10,581 nucleotides of DNA, from the UHGV virus genome UHGV-0266139; one strand, given 5' to 3'. Of the stretch, positions 1 to 10,581 are shown one piece after another. The notes beneath the pieces were generated by a model. That model saw only the letters and a list, made by a program, of their open reading frames with translations, was not told where the DNA came from and did not search any database. The position numbers were made by a program, and so were the translations under genes. Source of the DNA: a virus. Every line of letters starts with the position of its first letter. Position 1 is the stretch's first letter.

Positions 1-49
1 AACGCGTTATAAATAAATGTATGAAAGATGTTGAGCTGGTCAACGTCTA

Positions 50-253: not shown

Positions 254-427
254 ATGGATCTTTTTGTCTATTTCGCTACTCTGCTGTTTTTGACTATCGT
301 CGCTGGCATTAAATTGATTTTTATATCGCTGGTGGTGTTTTTCAAATTTCTAATCGGTACGCCTTACGGCTGGGTATGTTTAATCCTGTTTATTCTTTTT
401 AGTTGCTGTAAAAAGGATACTAAATAA
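254..427 (+). CDS. Small membrane protein, 57 aa (MDLFVYFATLLFLTIVAGIKLIFISLVVFFKFLIGTPYGWVCLILFILFSCCKKDTK), two predicted transmembrane helices, charged C-terminus
   Basis: ATG at 254 preceded by AGAGGA (242-247) at 6-nt spacing; two hydrophobic stretches and KKDTK tail; followed downstream by two plus-strand terminators. Confidence 0.45.
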   Translation: MDLFVYFATLLFLTIVAGIKLIFISLVVFFKFLIGTPYGWVCLILFILFSCCKKDTK

Positions 428-687: not shown

Positions 688-713
688 AGGGACTCTTCGG
701 AGTCCCTTTTTTT
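688..713 (+). terminator. Intrinsic terminator, possibly bidirectional: stem AGGGACTC (688-695) / GAGTCCCT (700-707), TTCG loop, T7 run to 713
   Basis: Perfect 8-bp stem with TTCG loop and seven T on the plus strand; an A run on the other side means it may also end the minus-strand gene 720..1061. Confidence 0.6.
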
Positions 714-1086: not shown

Positions 1087-2049
1087 TTAAGCTGCTTTGC
1101 GAACGTCGAACACATTTTCGAACGCATCAAAAACTTTAACTGTCATTAAATCGATGAATTGAACGGAAGAACCATTTTTCTTAATCAGGTATTTGTTCCA
1201 TTCTGCAACGTCTGCAACAGTACGCTTTTCGTTAAGCAGAATCCAAAGAGCTTGTTTGTCTTTAGATTCAACCGCTTGAGTAAAGAAGTCTTTAGATTCA
1301 ACTTCCTGATCTGCTTCAACTGCCACAGGAGCAACTTCTTTAGCTTTCAGTTCTTCAATCTCAGCTTTCTGTGCTTCGATGATCTGGTCTTTTTCTTTCA
1401 GTGCAGCTTTCAGTTCTGCGATCTGTGCTTCCAGTGCAGAGAAACGATCTTCAACAGCAACCGGAGAAACAGCATTCACCTGTGCTTCCAGTTCCAGGAA
1501 TGCTTCGCAAGATTCAATGCGTTCTTTCTCTTCACCTTCATAAGCAACCAGTTCTACAACTTCTTTTTCGGTAGCGTGGCTGTTAAAGAATACAGCAAAG
1601 TAAGGATTGCCGGATTTAGTGAAGTTCAGTTTAGCTTTTCCGGTAACTTCTTTACGACGACCAAAGGTAATGTTGCAATCAGCGGTATCCTGAAAATCCA
1701 TGTTAGGAGCGGAAACGATAGCAGTATCACCAGCAATAACCAGGTGGAACAGTTCAGAAGAGTTCTTAACGGTGAAAGTAACGATGTGGTCTACTGCAAC
1801 GTCTTTAGCAGGTTTAACGCGGTCGATTGCTTTACGAACGCCGTTAGACAGTTTACCGTCAACACCAAAGCCAGCCGCGATCAGTGCTTCACGATGTGCT
1901 TTAAAGCCAGCGAAAGCGGATTTCTGCTGCGCAAAGGAAACATGAGCAACAACTTTCGGCTGAATCTTCTTGTTTGCTTCGGTGCCAAATTTGATAACTG
2001 ATTTAGCGTTGGTTACTTCGTTAGTGAAAAAGTTAGCGGAAAATAACAT
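1087..2049 (-). CDS. Hypothetical protein, 320 aa: N-terminal domain, central A/E/K-rich coiled-coil region with an internal short repeat, C-terminal domain
   Basis: ATG at 2049 with AGGAG 8 nt upstream; long ORF whose antisense frame is F/C-rich junk. Internal DNA repeat TCTTTAGATTCAAC at about 1257-1270 and 1289-1302 (encoding VESKD twice). No family recognised. Confidence 0.7.
   Translation of the reverse strand: MLFSANFFTNEVTNAKSVIKFGTEANKKIQPKVVAHVSFAQQKSAFAGFKAHREALIAAGFGVDGKLSNGVRKAIDRVKPAKDVAVDHIVTFTVKNSSELFHLVIAGDTAIVSAPNMDFQDTADCNITFGRRKEVTGKAKLNFTKSGNPYFAVFFNSHATEKEVVELVAYEGEEKERIESCEAFLELEAQVNAVSPVAVEDRFSALEAQIAELKAALKEKDQIIEAQKAEIEELKAKEVAPVAVEADQEVESKDFFTQAVESKDKQALWILLNEKRTVADVAEWNKYLIKKNGSSVQFIDLMTVKVFDAFENVFDVRKAA
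1145..1164. repeat. 20-bp perfect direct repeat ATTAAATCGATGAATTGAAC, copy 2 (inside the 3-prime end of the 320-aa gene, encoding VQFIDLM on the minus strand)
   Basis: Identical to 200-219; hand comparison. Confidence 0.6.
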
Positions 2050-2163: not shown

Positions 2164-2343
2164 TTAACAAACTTGAACGTTAATCTTTACCTGAATTTCG
2201 TATTTCTTCATTAGCTTGTAGAATCCGCTTCTATCAATTCCTTCCTTCTTAAAGAAGTTTTCCCCGCCTCGCTCAGTGTCGCTGTAAAAGCGTTTAGCAA
2301 TATCAACAATCATTTCACGAGTGAACTTAACAGGTCTAGCCAT
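2164..2343 (-). CDS. Small HTH DNA-binding protein, 59 aa (MARPVKFTREMIVDIAKRFYSDTERGGENFFKKEGIDRSGFYKLMKKYEIQVKINVQVC); first gene of the leftward operon
   Basis: Track ORF starts at a GTG (2358); the ATG at 2343 has GAGGAA 7 nt upstream. RP..F...DIA...Y....GI..FYK.MKK pattern resembles Hin/resolvase-type or Mor/C-type HTH domains (from memory). Paralogous to 5629..5856. Confidence 0.55.
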   Translation of the reverse strand: MARPVKFTREMIVDIAKRFYSDTERGGENFFKKEGIDRSGFYKLMKKYEIQVKINVQVC

Positions 2344-2729: not shown

Positions 2730-2912
2730 CGAGAAATGGCTATCAAATTTTTTGTTTGAAAATGGTAGATCAGGATTATCAACCTTTATAACCTATTATG
2801 GCACGGAGACCTTTTGACAATTCTTTTTAAATCATTAACTTACGCCACTTTTTGGTGATTTTTTGATTAAATAATATACAATAATTTTCTATCAAAATAT
2901 TTGATGGGAATT

Positions 2913-3105
2913 GCCCCTGAAATTCTGAATTTTTGCCCCCGAATAAAATCCCCAAGATTCCACTATCCAATTTTTGCCCCTGAAACCTACTATTTTTGCC
3001 CCTGAAATTCTGGGAAACAGTGATTTTGCCCCTCATTTTTGCCCCTGAAATGACAATAATTGCCCCTGAAAATCTAATTTTTGCCCCTGAAATTTGCCCC
3101 CGAAA
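2913..3105. repeat. Array of about 9 same-orientation direct repeats, consensus TTTTTGCCCC(T/C)GAAA, mostly 21-22 bp apart (iteron-like)
   Basis: GCCCC cores start at about 2913, 2935, 2976, 2998, 3028, 3041, 3062, 3083, 3096 (hand-counted); a further copy at 5446-5455 sits inside a terminator stem. Confidence 0.7.
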
Positions 3106-3246
3106 GGGATTGGTGAGAAAAACCATTTATAAAACATTAACTTAGCGAGGGCAAAAGCGGGGAATCGGGCGTGCATAGATATTATATAACACATTCGCTA
3201 CGCTCATGTGTAAAACCAAAAACAACAAATAACCAAAAAGATATTA

Positions 3247-3265
3247 GGAGGGCGTAGCCCGACTG
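3247..3265. repeat. About 20-bp direct repeat GGAGGGCGTAGCCCGACTG, copy 1
   Basis: Matches 3678-3697 (GGAGGGCTTTAGCCCGACTG) with one indel; the two copies bracket the CTAG-rich module. Confidence 0.5.
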
Positions 3266-3285
3266 CGCGAAGCGCCAACCAATTG

Positions 3286-3530
3286 CTTCTAGTAACAACT
3301 AATTTAAACTAGATGATACTAGATGGTCTTAGAAGGAATTAACTAGTTTGCTCGCTCGCTTCGCTCACTCTCAAACGTCTGCGACGCCACTGCGTGGCAT
3401 CGAGAATCACTTCTGAAAGGATTTTCTCGAAAGGGATTTAAACTAGTTACTAACTGATTCTAGAAAGATAGTAATAATCACTTTGAAGATAATAGTAGTT
3501 AACTGGTTACTAGATGATTCTAGATCACTT
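3286..3530. repeat. CTAG-rich repeat module: units at 3308-3326, 3441-3467 and 3501-3527 (AACT(A/G)GTTACTA..TGATTCTAGA) flanking a GC-rich core at about 3348-3410
   Basis: Eight CTAG tetramers within about 235 bp against a handful across the rest of the window (by eye, not exhaustively counted); units 3441-3467 and 3501-3527 match at 21 of 27 positions; the core contains GCTC direct repeats and a GCCAC/GTGGC dyad. Confidence 0.6.
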
Positions 3531-3553
3531 TAATGATCATGAAAGGTATTGGT

Positions 3554-3582
3554 ATCCCTTCGGGATTGCAACCTTCGGTTGC
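3554..3582 (+). other. Two adjacent short hairpins: ATCCC/GGGAT (3554-3566) and GCAACC/GGTTGC (3568-3582), both with TTC(G) loops
   Basis: Inverted repeats seen directly; no clean T run follows, so RNA structure or processing site rather than a canonical terminator. Confidence 0.3.
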
Positions 3583-3677
3583 TAAATTGCTTCCTGATTA
3601 TTATTTCTCCAAAAGAAAGATTCTTATATTCTAAAGATACTTCTTCGTTTTGATGATGATTTAATCAAATCTATGAA

Positions 3678-3697
3678 GGAGGGCTTTAGCCCGACTG
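3678..3697. repeat. About 20-bp direct repeat GGAGGGCTTTAGCCCGACTG, copy 2
   Basis: See 3247-3265. Confidence 0.5.
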
Positions 3698-3786
3698 AAT
3701 ACAATCACCTTCTAAAAGAGATAAATTTTTCTCGTTATAAATAATAGTGAACTTACTTGATTCACTTTCTTTTAGAGGATACCACT

Positions 3787-4245
3787 ATGATCAATACTAA
3801 AACTCCTTTCGTACTTCTGGGTCTGGACTCTGAAAACTATGGTAACTTCCATATGCTAGAAGTTTTCGCTAATCGTGGTTATAACATCATTCGTCATTCC
3901 GAAGACTCCAACTACTCAACTGCTTTCTACGCTTTAAAACGAAATGGTCGTCCTACTGTGATCATCGACTGTTTTACTGATGAGGGTCGTCTTCAATACA
4001 ACGATATTCCAGCAATTATTGTTCGTGATGATCTGCCGTTTCAAGTCCGTGAGTATGACGTTGATTTAGGCTCTTACTACTCTTTAGCGGAACTTGACCA
4101 GATTATGGCTGATTACGGTAAACAACCCGCTCAGGAAGCCCCAGAACAAGATGAAGAAGATGAGGAAGACGAAGACTACGCTCCAATCTGTTTCTCTTCT
4201 CAGAATGGCTTCTACGGTTACGATGAAGGCTTAGATATGCTGTAA
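3787..4245 (+). CDS. Highly acidic protein, 152 aa (about 31 D/E against about 10 K/R), with poly-acidic stretch EQDEEDEEDED near the C-terminus; function unknown, candidate DNA mimic or other host-interaction protein
   Basis: Track ORF starts at TTG 3757; the ATG at 3787 has AGAGGA 7 nt upstream. Codon choice looks like a highly expressed enterobacterial gene (CTG, CGT, GGT, TTC, AAC, TAC), judged by eye. First gene downstream of the repeat-rich region. Confidence 0.7.
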   Translation: MINTKTPFVLLGLDSENYGNFHMLEVFANRGYNIIRHSEDSNYSTAFYALKRNGRPTVIIDCFTDEGRLQYNDIPAIIVRDDLPFQVREYDVDLGSYYSLAELDQIMADYGKQPAQEAPEQDEEDEEDEDYAPICFSSQNGFYGYDEGLDML

Positions 4246-4280
4246 GTTAGGTCAACCCTTTGGTGTCTTGTCAAGGGGTA

Positions 4281-4309
4281 TTGGCAAAAATTTATGACTT
4301 TTTTATGAT
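4281..4309 (+). promoter_or_regulatory. Near-consensus sigma70-type promoter: TTGGCA (4281-4286), 17-bp spacer, TATGAT (4304-4309)
   Basis: 5 of 6 matches in each hexamer with optimal spacing; sits between the acidic gene and the 48-aa ORF. Assumes an enterobacterial-type host. Confidence 0.45.
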
Positions 4310-4317
4310 TATCGCAC

Positions 4318-4346
4318 TTGACAAATTTTAACCCATTTGACCTAGA
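4318..4346. promoter_or_regulatory. TTGACA-N13-TTGACCTAGA motif, copy 2
   Basis: Same architecture as 2701-2729; lies just downstream of the promoter call and upstream of the 48-aa ORF. Confidence 0.3.
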
Positions 4347-4367
4347 TTTGTAAAGAGGATGTTAATT

Positions 4368-4514
4368 ATGAACACTACTAAGAAAGTTGATGGACGTAAA
4401 AACCCGAACCGCAAACCGTGGACCCCAAACCTGAATTTCTCAATGGTTGACTTCCATGAACGCCAGCGTCGCATTCAAGAAGAAATTGATCGCGCGATTG
4501 CTGAATCTAAATGA
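4368..4514 (+). CDS. Small basic protein, 48 aa (MNTTKKVDGRKNPNRKPWTPNLNFSMVDFHERQRRIQEEIDRAIAESK)
   Basis: ATG at 4368 with AGAGGA about 10 nt upstream, downstream of the promoter call; basic N-terminus, helical-looking C-terminus. Below the size of the supplied ORF track. Confidence 0.45.
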   Translation: MNTTKKVDGRKNPNRKPWTPNLNFSMVDFHERQRRIQEEIDRAIAESK

Positions 4515-4541
4515 GATAAAAATTTCTTTATAAATAAAATT

Positions 4542-4563
4542 GTTCCGGTTGAGATGCCGGAAC
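4542..4563 (+). other. Hairpin GTTCCGG / CCGGAAC with 8-nt loop immediately upstream of the Rha-like gene ribosome-binding region
   Basis: Perfect 7-bp inverted repeat; followed by TAGGAGGA, not a T run, so not a terminator; possible leader structure. Confidence 0.3.
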
Positions 4564-4603
4564 TAGGAGGATCATCACTAAACCGTTTAAGGGGGATTTT
4601 ACT

Positions 4604-5437
4604 ATGAATACTGTTACTACTATGAATACTGCTGTTAAAACTGCTTCTGTGTCTCTGGTTGTTGATAACACCAAACCGCTGACCATGTCTTCTCGTCAGA
4701 TTGCTGAATTTACCGGAAAAGAACACCACAAAGTTAAAGTTGATATAACTAAGATGTTGAATGCTCTAGGTTATGAAGATCACGCGAAGTTTCGCGTCAT
4801 CTATTTTGACCAATACGGACGCGAACAAAACGAATATCAACTAGACGAAGAAATGACTCTGACTCTTGTCACTGGTTACGATGTTAAGCGTCGAATGGTT
4901 GTTATTCAGGAATGGAAACGACTGAAAGAAGAAAATGAAAAACTGCGTTCTCAGCAAGTCAACCCATACGCAAACATGACTAAGCTCGATTGGATTCGTG
5001 AGGCAATGGAATTGGAAGCCGCAAACGAACAACTGATTCAAGAAAAAGAACAATTAGTTGATCTTCATATCCGTAAAGCTATTGATGCACACAGTCTTAG
5101 CCGCTTATTAGGCGAAAAACGAGGCTCTACGAAGGTACAAATGATTCTGAAAGGTTTATGTGCTGCTGGTGTTCTTGAGCGTCGTCTGGATGCTTCTGGT
5201 AAGCCTAAAGGCTATGATCTGCTTCCTCCTGGCTATATGTTCGCTCGTATGTCGGCACACGGTCAGATCGAGTTCACTGCTGATGCTATCCCGCATCTCG
5301 TAAAACTCGGATTGCTTGAAGAAGAAAAGGCCGCAACTTTGAAATTGCCACAGCCGAACAACTCACGAGCAATTGTCAATAACACTGCTTTGCTGATTCG
5401 TCAGAATGTTGGATCGCTAGAACACTTCGGACTGTAA
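4604..5437 (+). CDS. Rha-family phage regulatory protein (N-terminal Rha-like domain), 277 aa, with coiled-coil middle and C-terminal domain of unknown function
   Basis: ATG at 4604 with GGGGG 8 nt upstream. N-terminal SSRQIAEFTGKEHHKV...TLTLVTGYDVKRRMVVIQEW matches my recollection of the Rha domain pattern (VAE.FGK.H..V..DI, L.VMGFTG), not a database hit. A 13-bp tandem duplication ACTATGAATACTG (4601-4613, 4619-4631) gives MNTVTTMNTAV. Confidence 0.75.
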   Translation: MNTVTTMNTAVKTASVSLVVDNTKPLTMSSRQIAEFTGKEHHKVKVDITKMLNALGYEDHAKFRVIYFDQYGREQNEYQLDEEMTLTLVTGYDVKRRMVVIQEWKRLKEENEKLRSQQVNPYANMTKLDWIREAMELEAANEQLIQEKEQLVDLHIRKAIDAHSLSRLLGEKRGSTKVQMILKGLCAAGVLERRLDASGKPKGYDLLPPGYMFARMSAHGQIEFTADAIPHLVKLGLLEEEKAATLKLPQPNNSRAIVNNTALLIRQNVGSLEHFGL

Positions 5438-5445
5438 TAATTTTT

Positions 5446-5470
5446 GCCCCTGAATTTCAGGGGCTTTTTT
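5446..5470 (+). terminator. Strong intrinsic terminator: GCCCCTG (5446-5452) / CAGGGGC (5458-5464), T6 run (5465-5470); built on a copy of the GCCCCTGAA repeat
   Basis: Perfect GC-rich stem followed directly by TTTTTT, 9 nt after the Rha-like stop codon. Confidence 0.75.
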
Positions 5471-5473
5471 GTA

Positions 5474-5509
5474 TCTGTAGATGCGCTGAACTTTAAGCGC
5501 ATCTACAGA
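5474..5509. promoter_or_regulatory. Perfect 13-bp inverted repeat TCTGTAGATGCGC-N10-GCGCATCTACAGA, followed by palindrome GATGCATC (5514-5521)
   Basis: Seen directly; lies in the intergenic gap between the Rha terminator and the minus-strand cassette; candidate protein-binding site or second hairpin. Confidence 0.4.
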
Positions 5510-5587
5510 TTTGGATGCATCTATAGATCAGTCAAGATTTGGACTCAGCTTCGAGATGAGCGCAGTTTTGCGCCGATTGTTTTACAT

Positions 5588-5613
5588 ACAAAAAAGCCAC
5601 TCCGAAGAGTGGC
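5588..5613 (-). terminator. Minus-strand intrinsic terminator: GCCACTC (5596-5602) / GAGTGGC (5607-5613) with a run of T on the minus strand (plus-strand A run 5588-5595)
   Basis: On the minus strand the stem has a UUCG loop and is followed by UUUUUUGU; 16 nt past the stop codon of gene 5629..5856. Confidence 0.65.
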
Positions 5614-5628
5614 AAAGAGAATCAAAAC

Positions 5629-5856
5629 TCAAAAACCTGTTGCTTCTACGATCTGACCATCACCGATCTGAACATAGAATTTAATGTCTAACTTCTTCAT
5701 ATTCTTATAGAATTGGGCGATTGAGATCCCATGTTCACTAAGAATCTGTTCTTTCGCTTCCTTACCACGATCCGCTGTATAATAAGCGTAGGCAATATCA
5801 GCCATCTGTTCAGCGTTAAAACGGGCAGGGCGACCGCGAGTAGCTTTAGTAGTCAT
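5629..5856 (-). CDS. Small HTH DNA-binding protein, 75 aa (MTTKATRGRPARFNAEQMADIAYAYY...GISIAQFYKNMKKLDIK...), paralog of 2164..2343
   Basis: Track ORF starts at GTG 5889; ATGs at 5862 and 5856, the latter 9 nt from GGAG. RGRPARF then helix-turn-helix pattern resembles the Hin/resolvase-type DNA-binding domain (GRPR arm plus HTH), from memory. The start could be 5862. Confidence 0.55.
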   Translation of the reverse strand: MTTKATRGRPARFNAEQMADIAYAYYTADRGKEAKEQILSEHGISIAQFYKNMKKLDIKFYVQIGDGQIVEATGF

Positions 5857-5891
5857 AGTCATTTTCTCCAAATTAAAGTGAATGTTCACCT

Positions 5892-6494
5892 TTATTTAGA
5901 GGACTTACATTTTATCGGAAAAAGTTCTCCATCGTCAACCGACATAAAGAACTCTGCCTTAATCCCGTACTTCTTCAACCGTGAATAGTATGTACCCCGA
6001 CTAATATCAACCTTGCGAAGCACTTCGAAGAACTCTTTAGGATTCCTGTAATAATGGCTATAACGCACGTTAGCGAGTTCAACGAATAGTTCCCTTGTAT
6101 CACCATAGCCTTTCTTGAAAGCCTCGTTACGATAGCGTGTAATAGCGTGATTCGATCTCTTCTGTTTAAGCACTTCCCTGATCGGCTTCCACTGCAACCG
6201 ATAGATTGGACCGCCATCCACTCGATAATAACGCTTGATATCAAAATCAAACCATTCACGGACTCGCTGAAACTCTGTCTGTGATGTTCGGTGCTTCTTA
6301 AAGAAGTTATGAATATCGGTATACCCATGATCGCGATACAACTCGATTAAAATCTCTTTCGCTTCCTCACGACTAAAGCCAGATGTTGTGTAGTCGGTTT
6401 TTAAATGCTTATGCTTAACGGGTAAACGATATTCATGATCGGTACAAGACAAGGCTAATTCTAATTCATCTCTTTCTTGCTGATTAATTAGCAT
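5892..6494 (-). CDS. Basic 200-aa protein rich in R/K/Y with a C-terminal HTH module related to the two small HTH proteins; candidate DNA-binding regulator
   Basis: ATG at 6494 with AGGAGG about 4 nt upstream; C-terminal ...[26 protein letters not shown] aligns without gaps to the 75-aa protein (IS, Y, KK, IK). No nuclease motif (GIY-YIG, HNH, LAGLIDADG) seen. Confidence 0.65.
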
Positions 6495-6581
6495 ACACCC
6501 TCCTTAAATCTTAATACCCGTATTTATCAAAATATCAACAATTTAATAAATACCTTCATATTTCGTAATGAGGGTAATTAC

Positions 6582-8561: not shown

Positions 8562-9056
8562 ATGAGTTTAGAACTAATTCCCTTAGTAATTCGTAAAGGC
8601 GAAAAAATCACGCTGGCGAATGAAGAGGGTGTAACAATTCAGGTAGGAAATAGTAAAGGTATCATTTATCAGGTTGATGATACTCCGGCTAATCACGAGA
8701 TTAAAACCTTAGATTTTGCCGAAGGTAAATATACCATCGTAACCACGTTGGAAGATGAACTGGTATCAATGCAGGAATTAACTGTATTGCCGGTATTCGC
8801 CAAACAATCCAAAAAAGAATATCTGCGGGAAACTATCGCCACAATCGAGCAAGTTATTTTCGCCCGTTTATCTGGGGACGAAGCCGCATTATCTCAAATG
8901 ACAGTGAAAGGGAATACTTTCGCCTATGAGTCATTGGCTGTTCTCCAGCAATTGAAGACTGATTATGAACGTCAGTTATCTAAATTAATTCAAGCCGAAC
9001 GACGTAAACAGGGAATTAGCCCGATTAAAAATATTAAAGTACGTCTTACGCGATAA
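8562..9056 (+). CDS. Head-tail joining protein, gpW-like C-terminal region with an extra N-terminal region of about 95 aa; 164 aa total
   Basis: ATG with AAGGGG 5 nt upstream; stop abuts the portal ribosome-binding site. C-terminal about 65 aa (ARLSGDEAALSQMTVKGNTFAYESLAVLQQLKTDYERQ) resembles lambda gpW (68 aa) in pattern and in position between terminase and portal; the N-terminal region has no lambda counterpart. Confidence 0.55.
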   Translation: MSLELIPLVIRKGEKITLANEEGVTIQVGNSKGIIYQVDDTPANHEIKTLDFAEGKYTIVTTLEDELVSMQELTVLPVFAKQSKKEYLRETIATIEQVIFARLSGDEAALSQMTVKGNTFAYESLAVLQQLKTDYERQLSKLIQAERRKQGISPIKNIKVRLTR

Positions 9057-9066
9057 GGGGTAAATC

Positions 9067-10509
9067 ATGTTTAATCTTTTTCGACGCAAAAAGGCGGTAG
9101 AAACTCCAGTTAAAACTAATCACCGCCAGCAACAACCAAAAATTTTCATCGACAAACAAGTAGAAAAATTCCAGAAAGATTTGTCTAAGCGTTCTTTGGG
9201 CTTGGTCGGTGATCGCATTGATGGATCGCTTCAACAAGATACTATCACAGGAACCTTCAATAAGGCTCTCAAATCGAACGGTAAGCGCCTTTATGATCAG
9301 GGTCGTACTCTGGCCTTAAACACTTCCGTAGGCAGTCGCTACACGCAATACATCACCGATATGGTGGTTGGTACTGGCCTAGATCCGAAGCCGTCAGTTG
9401 TTAAATCAAATGGAAAACTTGATAGCGCACTGAATAAGCAGATCGAGAATGCTTTCTGGAAGTGGGCGCAGAATGCTAAACGCTTCTCTCGTAACGGTCG
9501 CTTTAACTTCCGTGAACTGCTGGTAATGGCTGAACGTGAGCGCGTTATGGGTGGTGAGTGCTTCATAGTTTTAACCAAAGAAAACAATGAGTTAAATGTT
9601 TCTATCCTGTCTGCTGATAAGTGCGACTGGACGCTCAACCGTGAAGTAAGCAAAGAACGTGCTATCTATCAGGGGATAGAGTATGACGTAGAAACAATGC
9701 GCCCTGTTGCATACTGGTTTCGTAAAATCAACCTACTGACTCAGACTTACACAGGTGATAACTATCGCGTAGATGCTTCGCAAGTATGCCATTATTATCA
9801 ACCACTTGCGGCTGAATCTCTGCGTGGTGTGACTGACTTCCTGCCAGTGATCAAGGATATTGCGCATCAAGACGCATTCCGCGAAACCGCGATCATCCAG
9901 AAACGTATTGCAGCTAGCTCTATGGGCTTTATCGAACGTCCGAAAGATTCTGGTGACGATTTTGATACTGGTGAAGAGGATGAACAATATCAAGCGCCGG
10001 AAGTAGTACAGGATTTTGCACCGGGTACTATTCAGGAATTGCCGGAAGGGGCAACGATCAAGAGCATCCAGGCGACGCAAAGCGGTGATGATTTCAATTC
10101 CTTCAATGATGCGATGTTTACTAGCGTATCAATGGGCTTAGGCGTGTTTAAACAGGGCTTGACTGGTGATACTTCCCAGATCAACTACTCAGCCGCGCGT
10201 TTCGGTGAACTACTTCAACGTAACCGTGTTAAATCGCTACAAAACAAATTGATTGAAACAGTGGTATTGCCAATTTTTGAAGCATATCTACGCCATTATT
10301 CCGCGCGTGGTATTGTTCCGATTCGTATTACTGCAATCCCGCATATTATCGATAACACTACTATTATTCGTCCGCGTTTTGAGTCCGTCGATGTTATTAA
10401 AGATGTGAACGCTGATATTGCTTTAATTGATAACGGACTTAGAATCTATCCCAAAAGGATTTTATTCCAGACAATGATGCTGCAAGCAAAATGCAGCATC
10501 GCCTCGTAG
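9067..10509 (+). CDS. Portal protein, lambda gpB type, 480 aa
   Basis: ATG with AAGGGG 6 nt upstream. Blocks FWKWAQNAKRF...NFRELLVMAERERVMGGECFIV and GLGV...YSAAR parallel lambda gpB (AAWKEFAED...TFTMMIREGV...GELFV; GLGVSYEQLSRNYAQMSYSTAR) from memory; correct synteny after terminase and gpW. Confidence 0.85.
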   Translation: MFNLFRRKKAVETPVKTNHRQQQPKIFIDKQVEKFQKDLSKRSLGLVGDRIDGSLQQDTITGTFNKALKSNGKRLYDQGRTLALNTSVGSRYTQYITDMVVGTGLDPKPSVVKSNGKLDSALNKQIENAFWKWAQNAKRFSRNGRFNFRELLVMAERERVMGGECFIVLTKENNELNVSILSADKCDWTLNREVSKERAIYQGIEYDVETMRPVAYWFRKINLLTQTYTGDNYRVDASQVCHYYQPLAAESLRGVTDFLPVIKDIAHQDAFRETAIIQKRIAASSMGFIERPKDSGDDFDTGEEDEQYQAPEVVQDFAPGTIQELPEGATIKSIQATQSGDDFNSFNDAMFTSVSMGLGVFKQGLTGDTSQINYSAARFGELLQRNRVKSLQNKLIETVVLPIFEAYLRHYSARGIVPIRITAIPHIIDNTTIIRPRFESVDVIKDVNADIALIDNGLRIYPKRILFQTMMLQAKCSIAS

Positions 10510-10581
10510 TTTTCGACTTTCTTCTCCCATCGCGTCAGTATGCGGCGAAAGCGATTCATCCAGCTATGTGTTCTTTCCACA
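10491..10581 (+). CDS. 5-prime end of the next gene (MQHRLVVFDFLLPSRQYAAK...), overlapping the portal stop by 19 nt and running off the window; by synteny possibly a head protease or scaffold gene
   Basis: ATG at 10491 in a different frame from the portal, open to the window end; the 19-nt overlap mirrors the lambda B/C overlap. No clear Shine-Dalgarno and no sequence match to lambda gpC, so weak. Confidence 0.3.
   Translation, partial: MQHRLVVFDFLLPSRQYAAKAIHPAMCSFH

Follow-up and report, generated by a model that had tools for sequence, protein, structure and literature searches.

A probable Nu1-like small terminase gene lies apart from the large terminase gene in a family of Escherichia coli prophages

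The virus genome UHGV-0266139 encodes, in the stretch of 10,581 nucleotides analysed here (the window), a large terminase subunit of the lambda GpA type, TerL. Where, then, is the small subunit encoded? A reading of the window made from its letters alone (the sequence-only reading) described terL as preceded by a minus-strand cassette, with genes for a Rha-like protein, a basic peptide of 48 amino acids (aa) and an acidic protein further 5', and recognised no small terminase. It proposed either a non-canonical small terminase among the last three proteins or a small subunit that is encoded elsewhere or supplied in trans. The gene layout is borne out by the list of open reading frames (ORFs), and the lack of a recognisable small terminase holds in Pfam, PHROGs and NCBIfam, but it is true of the window only. 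We suggest that the system is very probably an ordinary two-subunit lambda-type (Nu1/A) terminase whose genes are not adjacent, and that the small subunit is a Nu1-like protein of 183 aa.

The window corresponds to positions 3365-13881 of locus L029 (GCA_030001495.1), with 0 mismatches across 10,517 bases, and the exact TerL sequence is present on Escherichia coli contigs. An E. coli prophage of approximately 36 kb, inserted in ycdX, has the window as its left arm. In brief, the prophage has a G+C content of 40%, splits ycdX (as in the copy L031/L032, NZ_CM184352.1 2864832-2900841), and is carried by 58 of 5,426 complete E. coli genomes, with close relatives in Shigella, Salmonella and Proteus. 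Within about 36 kb, intact relatives carry terS, terL and the portal gene, as well as fused protease-capsid, tail, lysis, helicase and recombinase genes. A 560-aa large serine recombinase and a DEAD/DEAH helicase are encoded at the prophage end opposite terS. The features of the terS unit and terL are, in window positions (zero and below lie to the left of the window):

-551 to 0 (L029 2813-3364), plus strand: terS, 183 aa (phrog_57, hhalign, AlphaFold2 model)
21-200 and 254-427, plus strand: two small hydrophobic ORFs 3' of terS in the same transcription unit (L029 gene calls of 59 and 57 aa)
586-603 and 688-707, plus strand: two terminator-like hairpins closing the terS unit (L029 3950-3967 and 4052-4071)
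6582-8489, plus strand: terL, GpA-type large terminase, 635 aa (Pfam and PHROG)

TerL passes the Pfam cutoffs for GpA_ATPase (193 bits, cutoff 25.6) and GpA_nuclease (150.5 bits, cutoff 22.5), and matches PHROG 15 with E=1.4e-137. Small-terminase candidates were sought among all remaining ORFs of a complete prophage copy of about 36 kb. The ORF of 183/184 aa at the extreme left of the prophage, with a TAA stop codon that forms the three bases directly before window position 1, matches PHROG 57, 'terminase small subunit' (E=2.2e-15; residues 1-168 on positions 9-190 of the 199-position profile). The scan of the whole prophage gave no second small-terminase candidate. The sequence-only reading had named a clear small-terminase gene elsewhere in the genome as part of what would refute it, and the present finding agrees with this. 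Of its proposals, a small subunit encoded elsewhere stands, with terS located 6,581 bases 5' of terL on the same strand, and a non-canonical one among the window ORFs is not supported.

The N-terminus of TerS contains MKEELTLTEISRLYGYTINAAKKWQERGMPF, a Nu1 winged-helix motif, and the C-terminus is an acidic tail. An alignment of the TerS family (A2) was compared with lambda Nu1 by hhalign and gave 92.6%, E=4.6e-7, with residues 4-87 on 2-105. The same alignment matched orf018 of phage Alexa, a 'DNA packaging protein' encoded beside a homologous terL (90.4%, E=1.4e-6, 140 columns), and gp01 of phage FoX1 (65.7%, E=5.8e-5, 134 columns). Sequence matches of TerS in the PDB were weak, and the terminase chains among them were small-subunit N-domains alone, 6hn7_B, 1j9i_A (Nu1) and 7lw0_A. 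The AlphaFold2 model has a winged helix-turn-helix (HTH), helices at residues 40-90, 93-117 and 129-153, and a disordered acidic tail at 157-179. Its top two Foldseek matches in the PDB were 6hn7_B and 1j9i, each with a probability of 0.99 and template modelling scores, normalised to the target, of 0.62 and 0.55. A fold search of BFVD added little, the best full-length matches being unnamed viral proteins and one 'DNA packaging protein'.

Members of the TerS family in NCBI and UniRef are in some cases named 'terminase small subunit', and in most cases 'hypothetical'. NCBIfam has no model for the family and the Prokaryotic Genome Annotation Pipeline (PGAP) annotates no small subunit. Since there is no NCBIfam model, PGAP calls most members hypothetical, and these E. 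coli prophages therefore seem to be without a small subunit. The apparent absence is thus an artefact of the window edge and of annotation. It should be noted that in one locus (L004 1413-3581) terS is broken by an insertion of approximately 1.6 kb into parts covering residues 1-63 and 58-183.

Several points weigh against the identification of terS as the small terminase gene. TerS scores 15.4 bits against Pfam Phage_Nu1 (PF07471), where the cutoff is 30, and over residues 10-31 only; judged by sequence, it is a Nu1-like relative outside this curated family. The Foldseek E-values, at about 0.23, reflect a match confined to the small N-domain, and the hhalign profile is shallow (effective number of sequences, Neff, 1.8). 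The winged-helix fold of Nu1 is common to excisionases and MerR-type regulators, and terS lies near attL. Binding of DNA and contact with TerL are functions that we infer for TerS indirectly, from lambda. Finally, an IS5 element in the portal gene of this prophage copy, described below, makes phage production by this strain itself uninformative.

The separation of the two genes is conserved. terS and terL share a strand in 42 of the 42 related loci that hold both, and the distance between them is 5.8-8.6 kb (median 6.3). In the prophage described here, about ten other genes lie between them, and terminator-like hairpins place them in separate transcription units. A second scan of viral contigs, using the TerS alignment, gave the same prophage family alone and no relative with adjacent terS and terL. 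Phages FoX1 (Xanthomonas), Alexa (Acinetobacter) and ep3 (E. coli) have the genes next to each other or nearly so. As all 42 loci have the split order, whereas these phages do not, we regard the uncoupling as belonging to the lineage as a whole rather than to one strain by accident.

By analogy with lambda, the N-terminal winged helix of TerS would bind a recognition site near the packaging site, and the helical middle part would self-associate. The acidic C-terminal tail would recruit the GpA-type TerL, which would cut and translocate the DNA. A G+C rich block of about 250 bp is located 5' of terS (L029 2560-2790; window -805 to -575) and is kept despite a differing left-hand gene. It holds an invariant GCGCGGTCGCTACGCGAC with a GTCGC/GCGAC dyad. 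This block is the best candidate for cos, or the TerS binding region, which agrees with the analogy but is no proof of it.

Two alleles of terL were found. The protein of the second allele is approximately 58% identical to that of the window (loci L036, L038, L040, L041, L043, L044 and others). The DNA of these loci is like the window through the first 16 codons of terL (to 6629) and again from 8244, the last ~80 codons. The second allele is accompanied by the same terS, the same gene for a 200-aa protein 5' of terL and the same portal-side genes. In lambda gpA, the N- and C-terminal regions that correspond to the kept ends contact Nu1 and the prohead. The pattern suggests that terL is a mosaic with conserved ends; it is consistent with conserved contact ends and proves nothing about them.

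Lambda gpNu1/gpA is like the system described here in several respects. Both GpA domains are present, Nu1 residues 2-105 align with TerS, the small subunits share a winged helix, a helical middle part and a tail, and terL is followed by a gene in the position of W and a lambda-family portal gene. The difference lies in gene order. The lambda gene nu1 (191-736) lies just downstream of cos and overlaps A (711-2636), whereas here the genes are 6.6 kb apart and in separate units. FoX1, Alexa and ep3, with TerL proteins 28-30% identical to that of the window, also have the order terL, a protein of about 100-180 aa (annotated as head-tail joining in FoX1 and ep3), portal and a large fused capsid. 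They differ in having terS immediately 5' of terL, with one HNH-like gene between the two in FoX1, and in lacking the divergent HTH cassette.

The closest deposited phage sequence is DCP80 (PQ671644.1), with a TerL 42.7% identical to that of the window and, as here, a terS that is not adjacent to terL. The DCP80 terS homologue is 33% identical to TerS at the protein level (hhalign 98.8%) and matches phrog_57 with E=9e-20. It differs in location: in the record it follows the endolysin gene and lies downstream of terL by about 22 kb. DCP80 has no homologue of the 200-aa protein. The record is 141 kb long and assigned to Straboviridae. It joins a GpA-type module of about 29 kb to T4-like genes (motA, rIIA, ndd) and looks chimeric, and for this reason the true terS/terL map of DCP80 is uncertain. 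A G+C rich island is located 5' of the terS homologue in DCP80 as well. The first 1.3 kb of the record resembles, by eye, a hairpin-rich non-coding stretch at approximately 3150-3700 in the window.

Phage P2 provides a precedent for non-adjacent terminase genes. Its large-subunit gene P and small-subunit gene M belong to late operons that diverge, and are separated by O and N. P2 differs from the system described here in the protein families, which are not Nu1/GpA, and in having capsid and scaffold genes between the two. The textbook order is cos-nu1-A, and a lineage in which 6-8 kb of early genes come between the nu1-like and the A-like gene deviates from it. Our claim is a modest one: the gene order is a lineage-wide variant of the known Nu1/A system, with the split as its one unusual feature. 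It leaves the view of terminase function unchanged, and would make the pair a useful test case for subunit stoichiometry and for cos recognition without translational coupling.

The region 5' of terL that the sequence-only reading had singled out, 3787-6581, holds the following features:

3787-4245, plus strand: acidic 152-aa protein, isoelectric point (pI) 4.05
4368-4514, plus strand: basic 48-aa peptide, pI 10.2, in a slot with two alternative cassettes
4604-5437, plus strand: Rha-family regulator, anti-repressor-like, 277 aa (Pfam and PHROG)
5446-5464, plus strand: terminator after the Rha-like gene (terminator scan)
5613-5596, minus strand: terminator after the 75-aa gene, convergent with the former (terminator scan)
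5629-5856, minus strand: HTH protein of 75 aa (86 aa when read from a GTG further 5'), composed of an RGRP arm, three helices and a beta hairpin
5892-6494, minus strand: 200-aa protein with two tandem HTH-plus-hairpin repeats, divergent from terL
6495-6581: divergent intergenic region of 87 bp between the 200-aa gene and terL, with presumed promoters

The five ORFs of this region score below every small-terminase model in Pfam, PHROGs and NCBIfam. When the small subunits of FoX1, Alexa, ep3 and DCP80, and the ORFs next to them, were compared by phmmer with all six-frame ORFs of the window, the result was noise alone (E>=0.9). Among relatives, substitutions at the first, second and third codon positions number 307/245/987 in the 200-aa gene and 193/143/472 in the 75-aa gene. 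The overlapping plus-strand ORF 5731-5988 has 171/105/94 and thus no third-position bias, so that the minus-strand cassette covers no hidden gene on the plus strand. The divergent intergenic region is too short for a small-terminase ORF.

The 152-aa protein, with substitutions of 496/259/813 by codon position, has no match in Pfam, PHROGs or NCBIfam. Its homologues are found in E. coli, Shigella and Salmonella alone and are confined to this prophage family. It shows no DNA-binding signature, and its two alleles are unlinked to those of terL. The slot 4362-4520 between the 152-aa gene and rha holds the 48-aa ORF in 10 of 24 loci and an unrelated acidic 110-aa ORF in 13 of 24. The Rha-like protein matches Phage_pRha over residues 28-108 (44.3 bits, cutoff 29.9) and the anti-repressor families of PHROGs (E=1e-14 to 3e-17), and stays under the cutoff of NCBIfam TIGR02681 (27.7, cutoff 45.95). 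Its identity across loci is 38-100%, where that of TerL is 77-100%. The convergent terminators set the gene unit 3787-5437 apart from terL. Between them we observed a near-perfect 38-bp palindrome (5473-5510; ATCTGTAGATGCGCTGAA/TTAAGCGCATCTACAGAT) followed by an imperfect second one (to 5541). The segment 5480-5585 is absent from many relatives.

The 200-aa and 75-aa proteins belong together with a third protein encoded further to the left:

2164-2343, minus strand: 59-aa HTH protein, first gene of a minus-strand operon (BLASTP, hhalign)

The 59-aa and 75-aa proteins are 35% identical (BLASTP, E=7e-10), the 59-aa protein matches alignment A1 (hhalign 95.3%), and the 75-aa protein matches repeat 1 of the 200-aa family (hhalign 93.6%, E=2e-7). 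In brief, one HTH-plus-beta-hairpin domain is present in four copies over the three proteins. The model of the 200-aa protein consists of two three-helix-plus-hairpin modules, and its matches are to generic HTH domains alone. None of the three proteins has a match in Pfam, PHROGs or NCBIfam, and a tblastn search with the 200-aa protein, the only one of the three used there, gave no match in 50,697 deposited phage records. We read the three as regulators, since their genes are in minus-strand units beside divergent promoter regions. The 200-aa gene is located directly 5' of terL, on the opposite strand, in 42 of 42 loci; its product is a candidate regulator and not a candidate small terminase. 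The 90%-identity cluster to which the 200-aa protein is assigned has 5,272 members, mostly IS3 transposases, with a representative of 276 aa. A fusion or chimeric sequence has probably produced this cluster as an artefact.

These data bear on four other explanations. The 183-aa protein could be an excisionase- or MerR-like DNA binder, for example a directionality factor of the serine recombinase, with the true small subunit yet to be found. The winged helix of Nu1 is itself an excisionase/MerR-like fold, the gene is near attL, and the RdfS excisionase, BldC and Xis come just under the two terminase matches in Foldseek. In addition, the DCP80 homologue touches phrog_66, 'excisionase and transcriptional regulator' (E=9e-5). 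The small-terminase matches, however, are full-length (phrog_57 over residues 1-168; Alexa and FoX1 over 134-140 columns that include the helical C-domain), the best ones are consistently terminases, and there is no other candidate in 36 kb. The DCP80 homologue, moreover, follows an endolysin gene in a region of the record without an annotated recombinase. We therefore consider an excisionase-like role unlikely. That the minus-strand 200-aa and 75-aa proteins are a non-canonical small terminase or a packaging-specificity factor would agree with their place next to terL in all 42 loci and with their being basic, predicted DNA-binding HTH proteins. The RGRP arm and HTH of the 75-aa protein are presumably of a type found in some small-terminase DNA-binding domains, such as that of Sf6 gp1. 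We hold this to be very unlikely.

The candidates of the sequence-only reading, the 48-aa peptide, the Rha-like protein and the acidic 152-aa protein, are small, charged or DNA-binding, and encoded on the same strand 5' of terL. None of them shows similarity to a small terminase. The 48-aa ORF is missing in most relatives, and the Rha-like protein, with its Phage_pRha and anti-repressor matches, varies widely beside a near-identical terL; so variable a slot and protein cannot be the fixed partner of a conserved terL. The alleles of the 152-aa protein are unrelated to those of terL, and terminators lie between the unit and terL. It is highly improbable that any of the three is the small terminase. 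Supply in trans, where the prophage would be a satellite or defective element using the small terminase of a helper phage, could be suspected from the IS5 element in this copy and from the lack of a PGAP-annotated small subunit. The silence of PGAP is explained by the missing NCBIfam model, and intact relatives carry a full complement of genes, from terS to the recombinase. A helper is not needed where a Nu1-like terS is encoded on the same strand, and we find this explanation scarcely credible. We thus retain the Nu1-like TerS as the small subunit.

We read the interval between terS and terL as no component of the terminase; it looks like an early or regulatory module, comprising the HTH paralogues, Rha, the variable cassettes and the following two features:

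1087-2049, minus strand: orphan 320-aa protein, of which the N-terminal 244 aa co-vary with iteron type
2911-3104, plus strand: eight direct TTGCCCCYGAA repeats, candidate origin iterons

Adjacent iterons are mostly 21-22 bp apart (range 13-43) and are located inside a 1.4-kb non-coding stretch. The window contains 9 matches to TTGCCCCYGAA where 0.25 would be expected, and in 200 shuffles the count always stayed below 9. The window's allele of the 320-aa protein is found in 10 of 10 loci with TTGCCCCTGAA iterons and in 0 of 9 loci with AAACCTACACTA iterons. Iteron type is unlinked to the alleles of the 59-aa, 152-aa, Rha and 75-aa proteins. Profile searches with the 320-aa protein gave no family match, and it has 12 relatives among 1.84 billion representatives. 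This co-variation is our reason for regarding the array as origin-like. Together with the 320-aa protein it looks like a new initiator-iteron (origin) module, in which the initiator role of the protein is suggested by allele linkage. The array was also considered as a TerS binding site, and this was rejected because its type tracks the 320-aa allele without exception.

We speculate, tentatively, on a wider scheme for this lineage and its DCP80-like relative, which we think possible rather than likely. The Nu1 and A genes would be stably uncoupled, with terS and the presumed cos at the genome end and an origin-like and regulatory region between the two terminase genes. The usual position of terS would be taken by a conserved divergent pair of an undescribed HTH family (59, 75 and 200 aa), possibly controlling expression of the late operon and terL or the choice of packaging site. 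A portable contact between the conserved basic N-terminus of TerL, 16 residues long, and the acidic TerS tail would then persist when the rest of terL is exchanged.

Downstream of terL the window holds the following features:

8562-9056, plus strand: 164-aa head-tail joining protein in the position of lambda W (phrog_5774 'head-tail joining', E=4e-9)
9067-10446, plus strand: lambda-family portal gene, cut at approximately codon 460 of 503 (Pfam Phage_portal_2, 215 bits)
10447-10581: end of an IS5-family insertion sequence within the portal gene, with 95-98% identity to the ends of such elements on Pantoea plasmids

The 164-aa gene has the same position as its counterpart in FoX1 and ep3. The portal of relatives is 503 aa long, and their alignment with the window stops at 10446; the portal ORF of the window, 9067-10509, reads on into IS5. 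The prophage copy is probably defective through this insertion.

A megablast search of the window against 50,697 phage records gave nothing, and against plasmids gave the IS5 end alone. A scan of genome contigs with TerL peptides gave no confirmed relative, and Rfam had no match on the prophage part of L029. In the literature we found nothing relevant on a ycdX-integrated prophage or on non-adjacent terminase genes. A further motif, GTTATAAATA (1 mismatch allowed), occurs 8 times in L029 2545-9679, where 1.6 copies would be expected, and all of 200 shuffles gave fewer than 8. The copies include window positions 6-15, 2608-2617, 3734-3743 and 4527-4536, among others. Most of them are located just 5' of a transcription unit and point the same way as the gene that follows, and the motif may act as a promoter element or be bound by a regulator.

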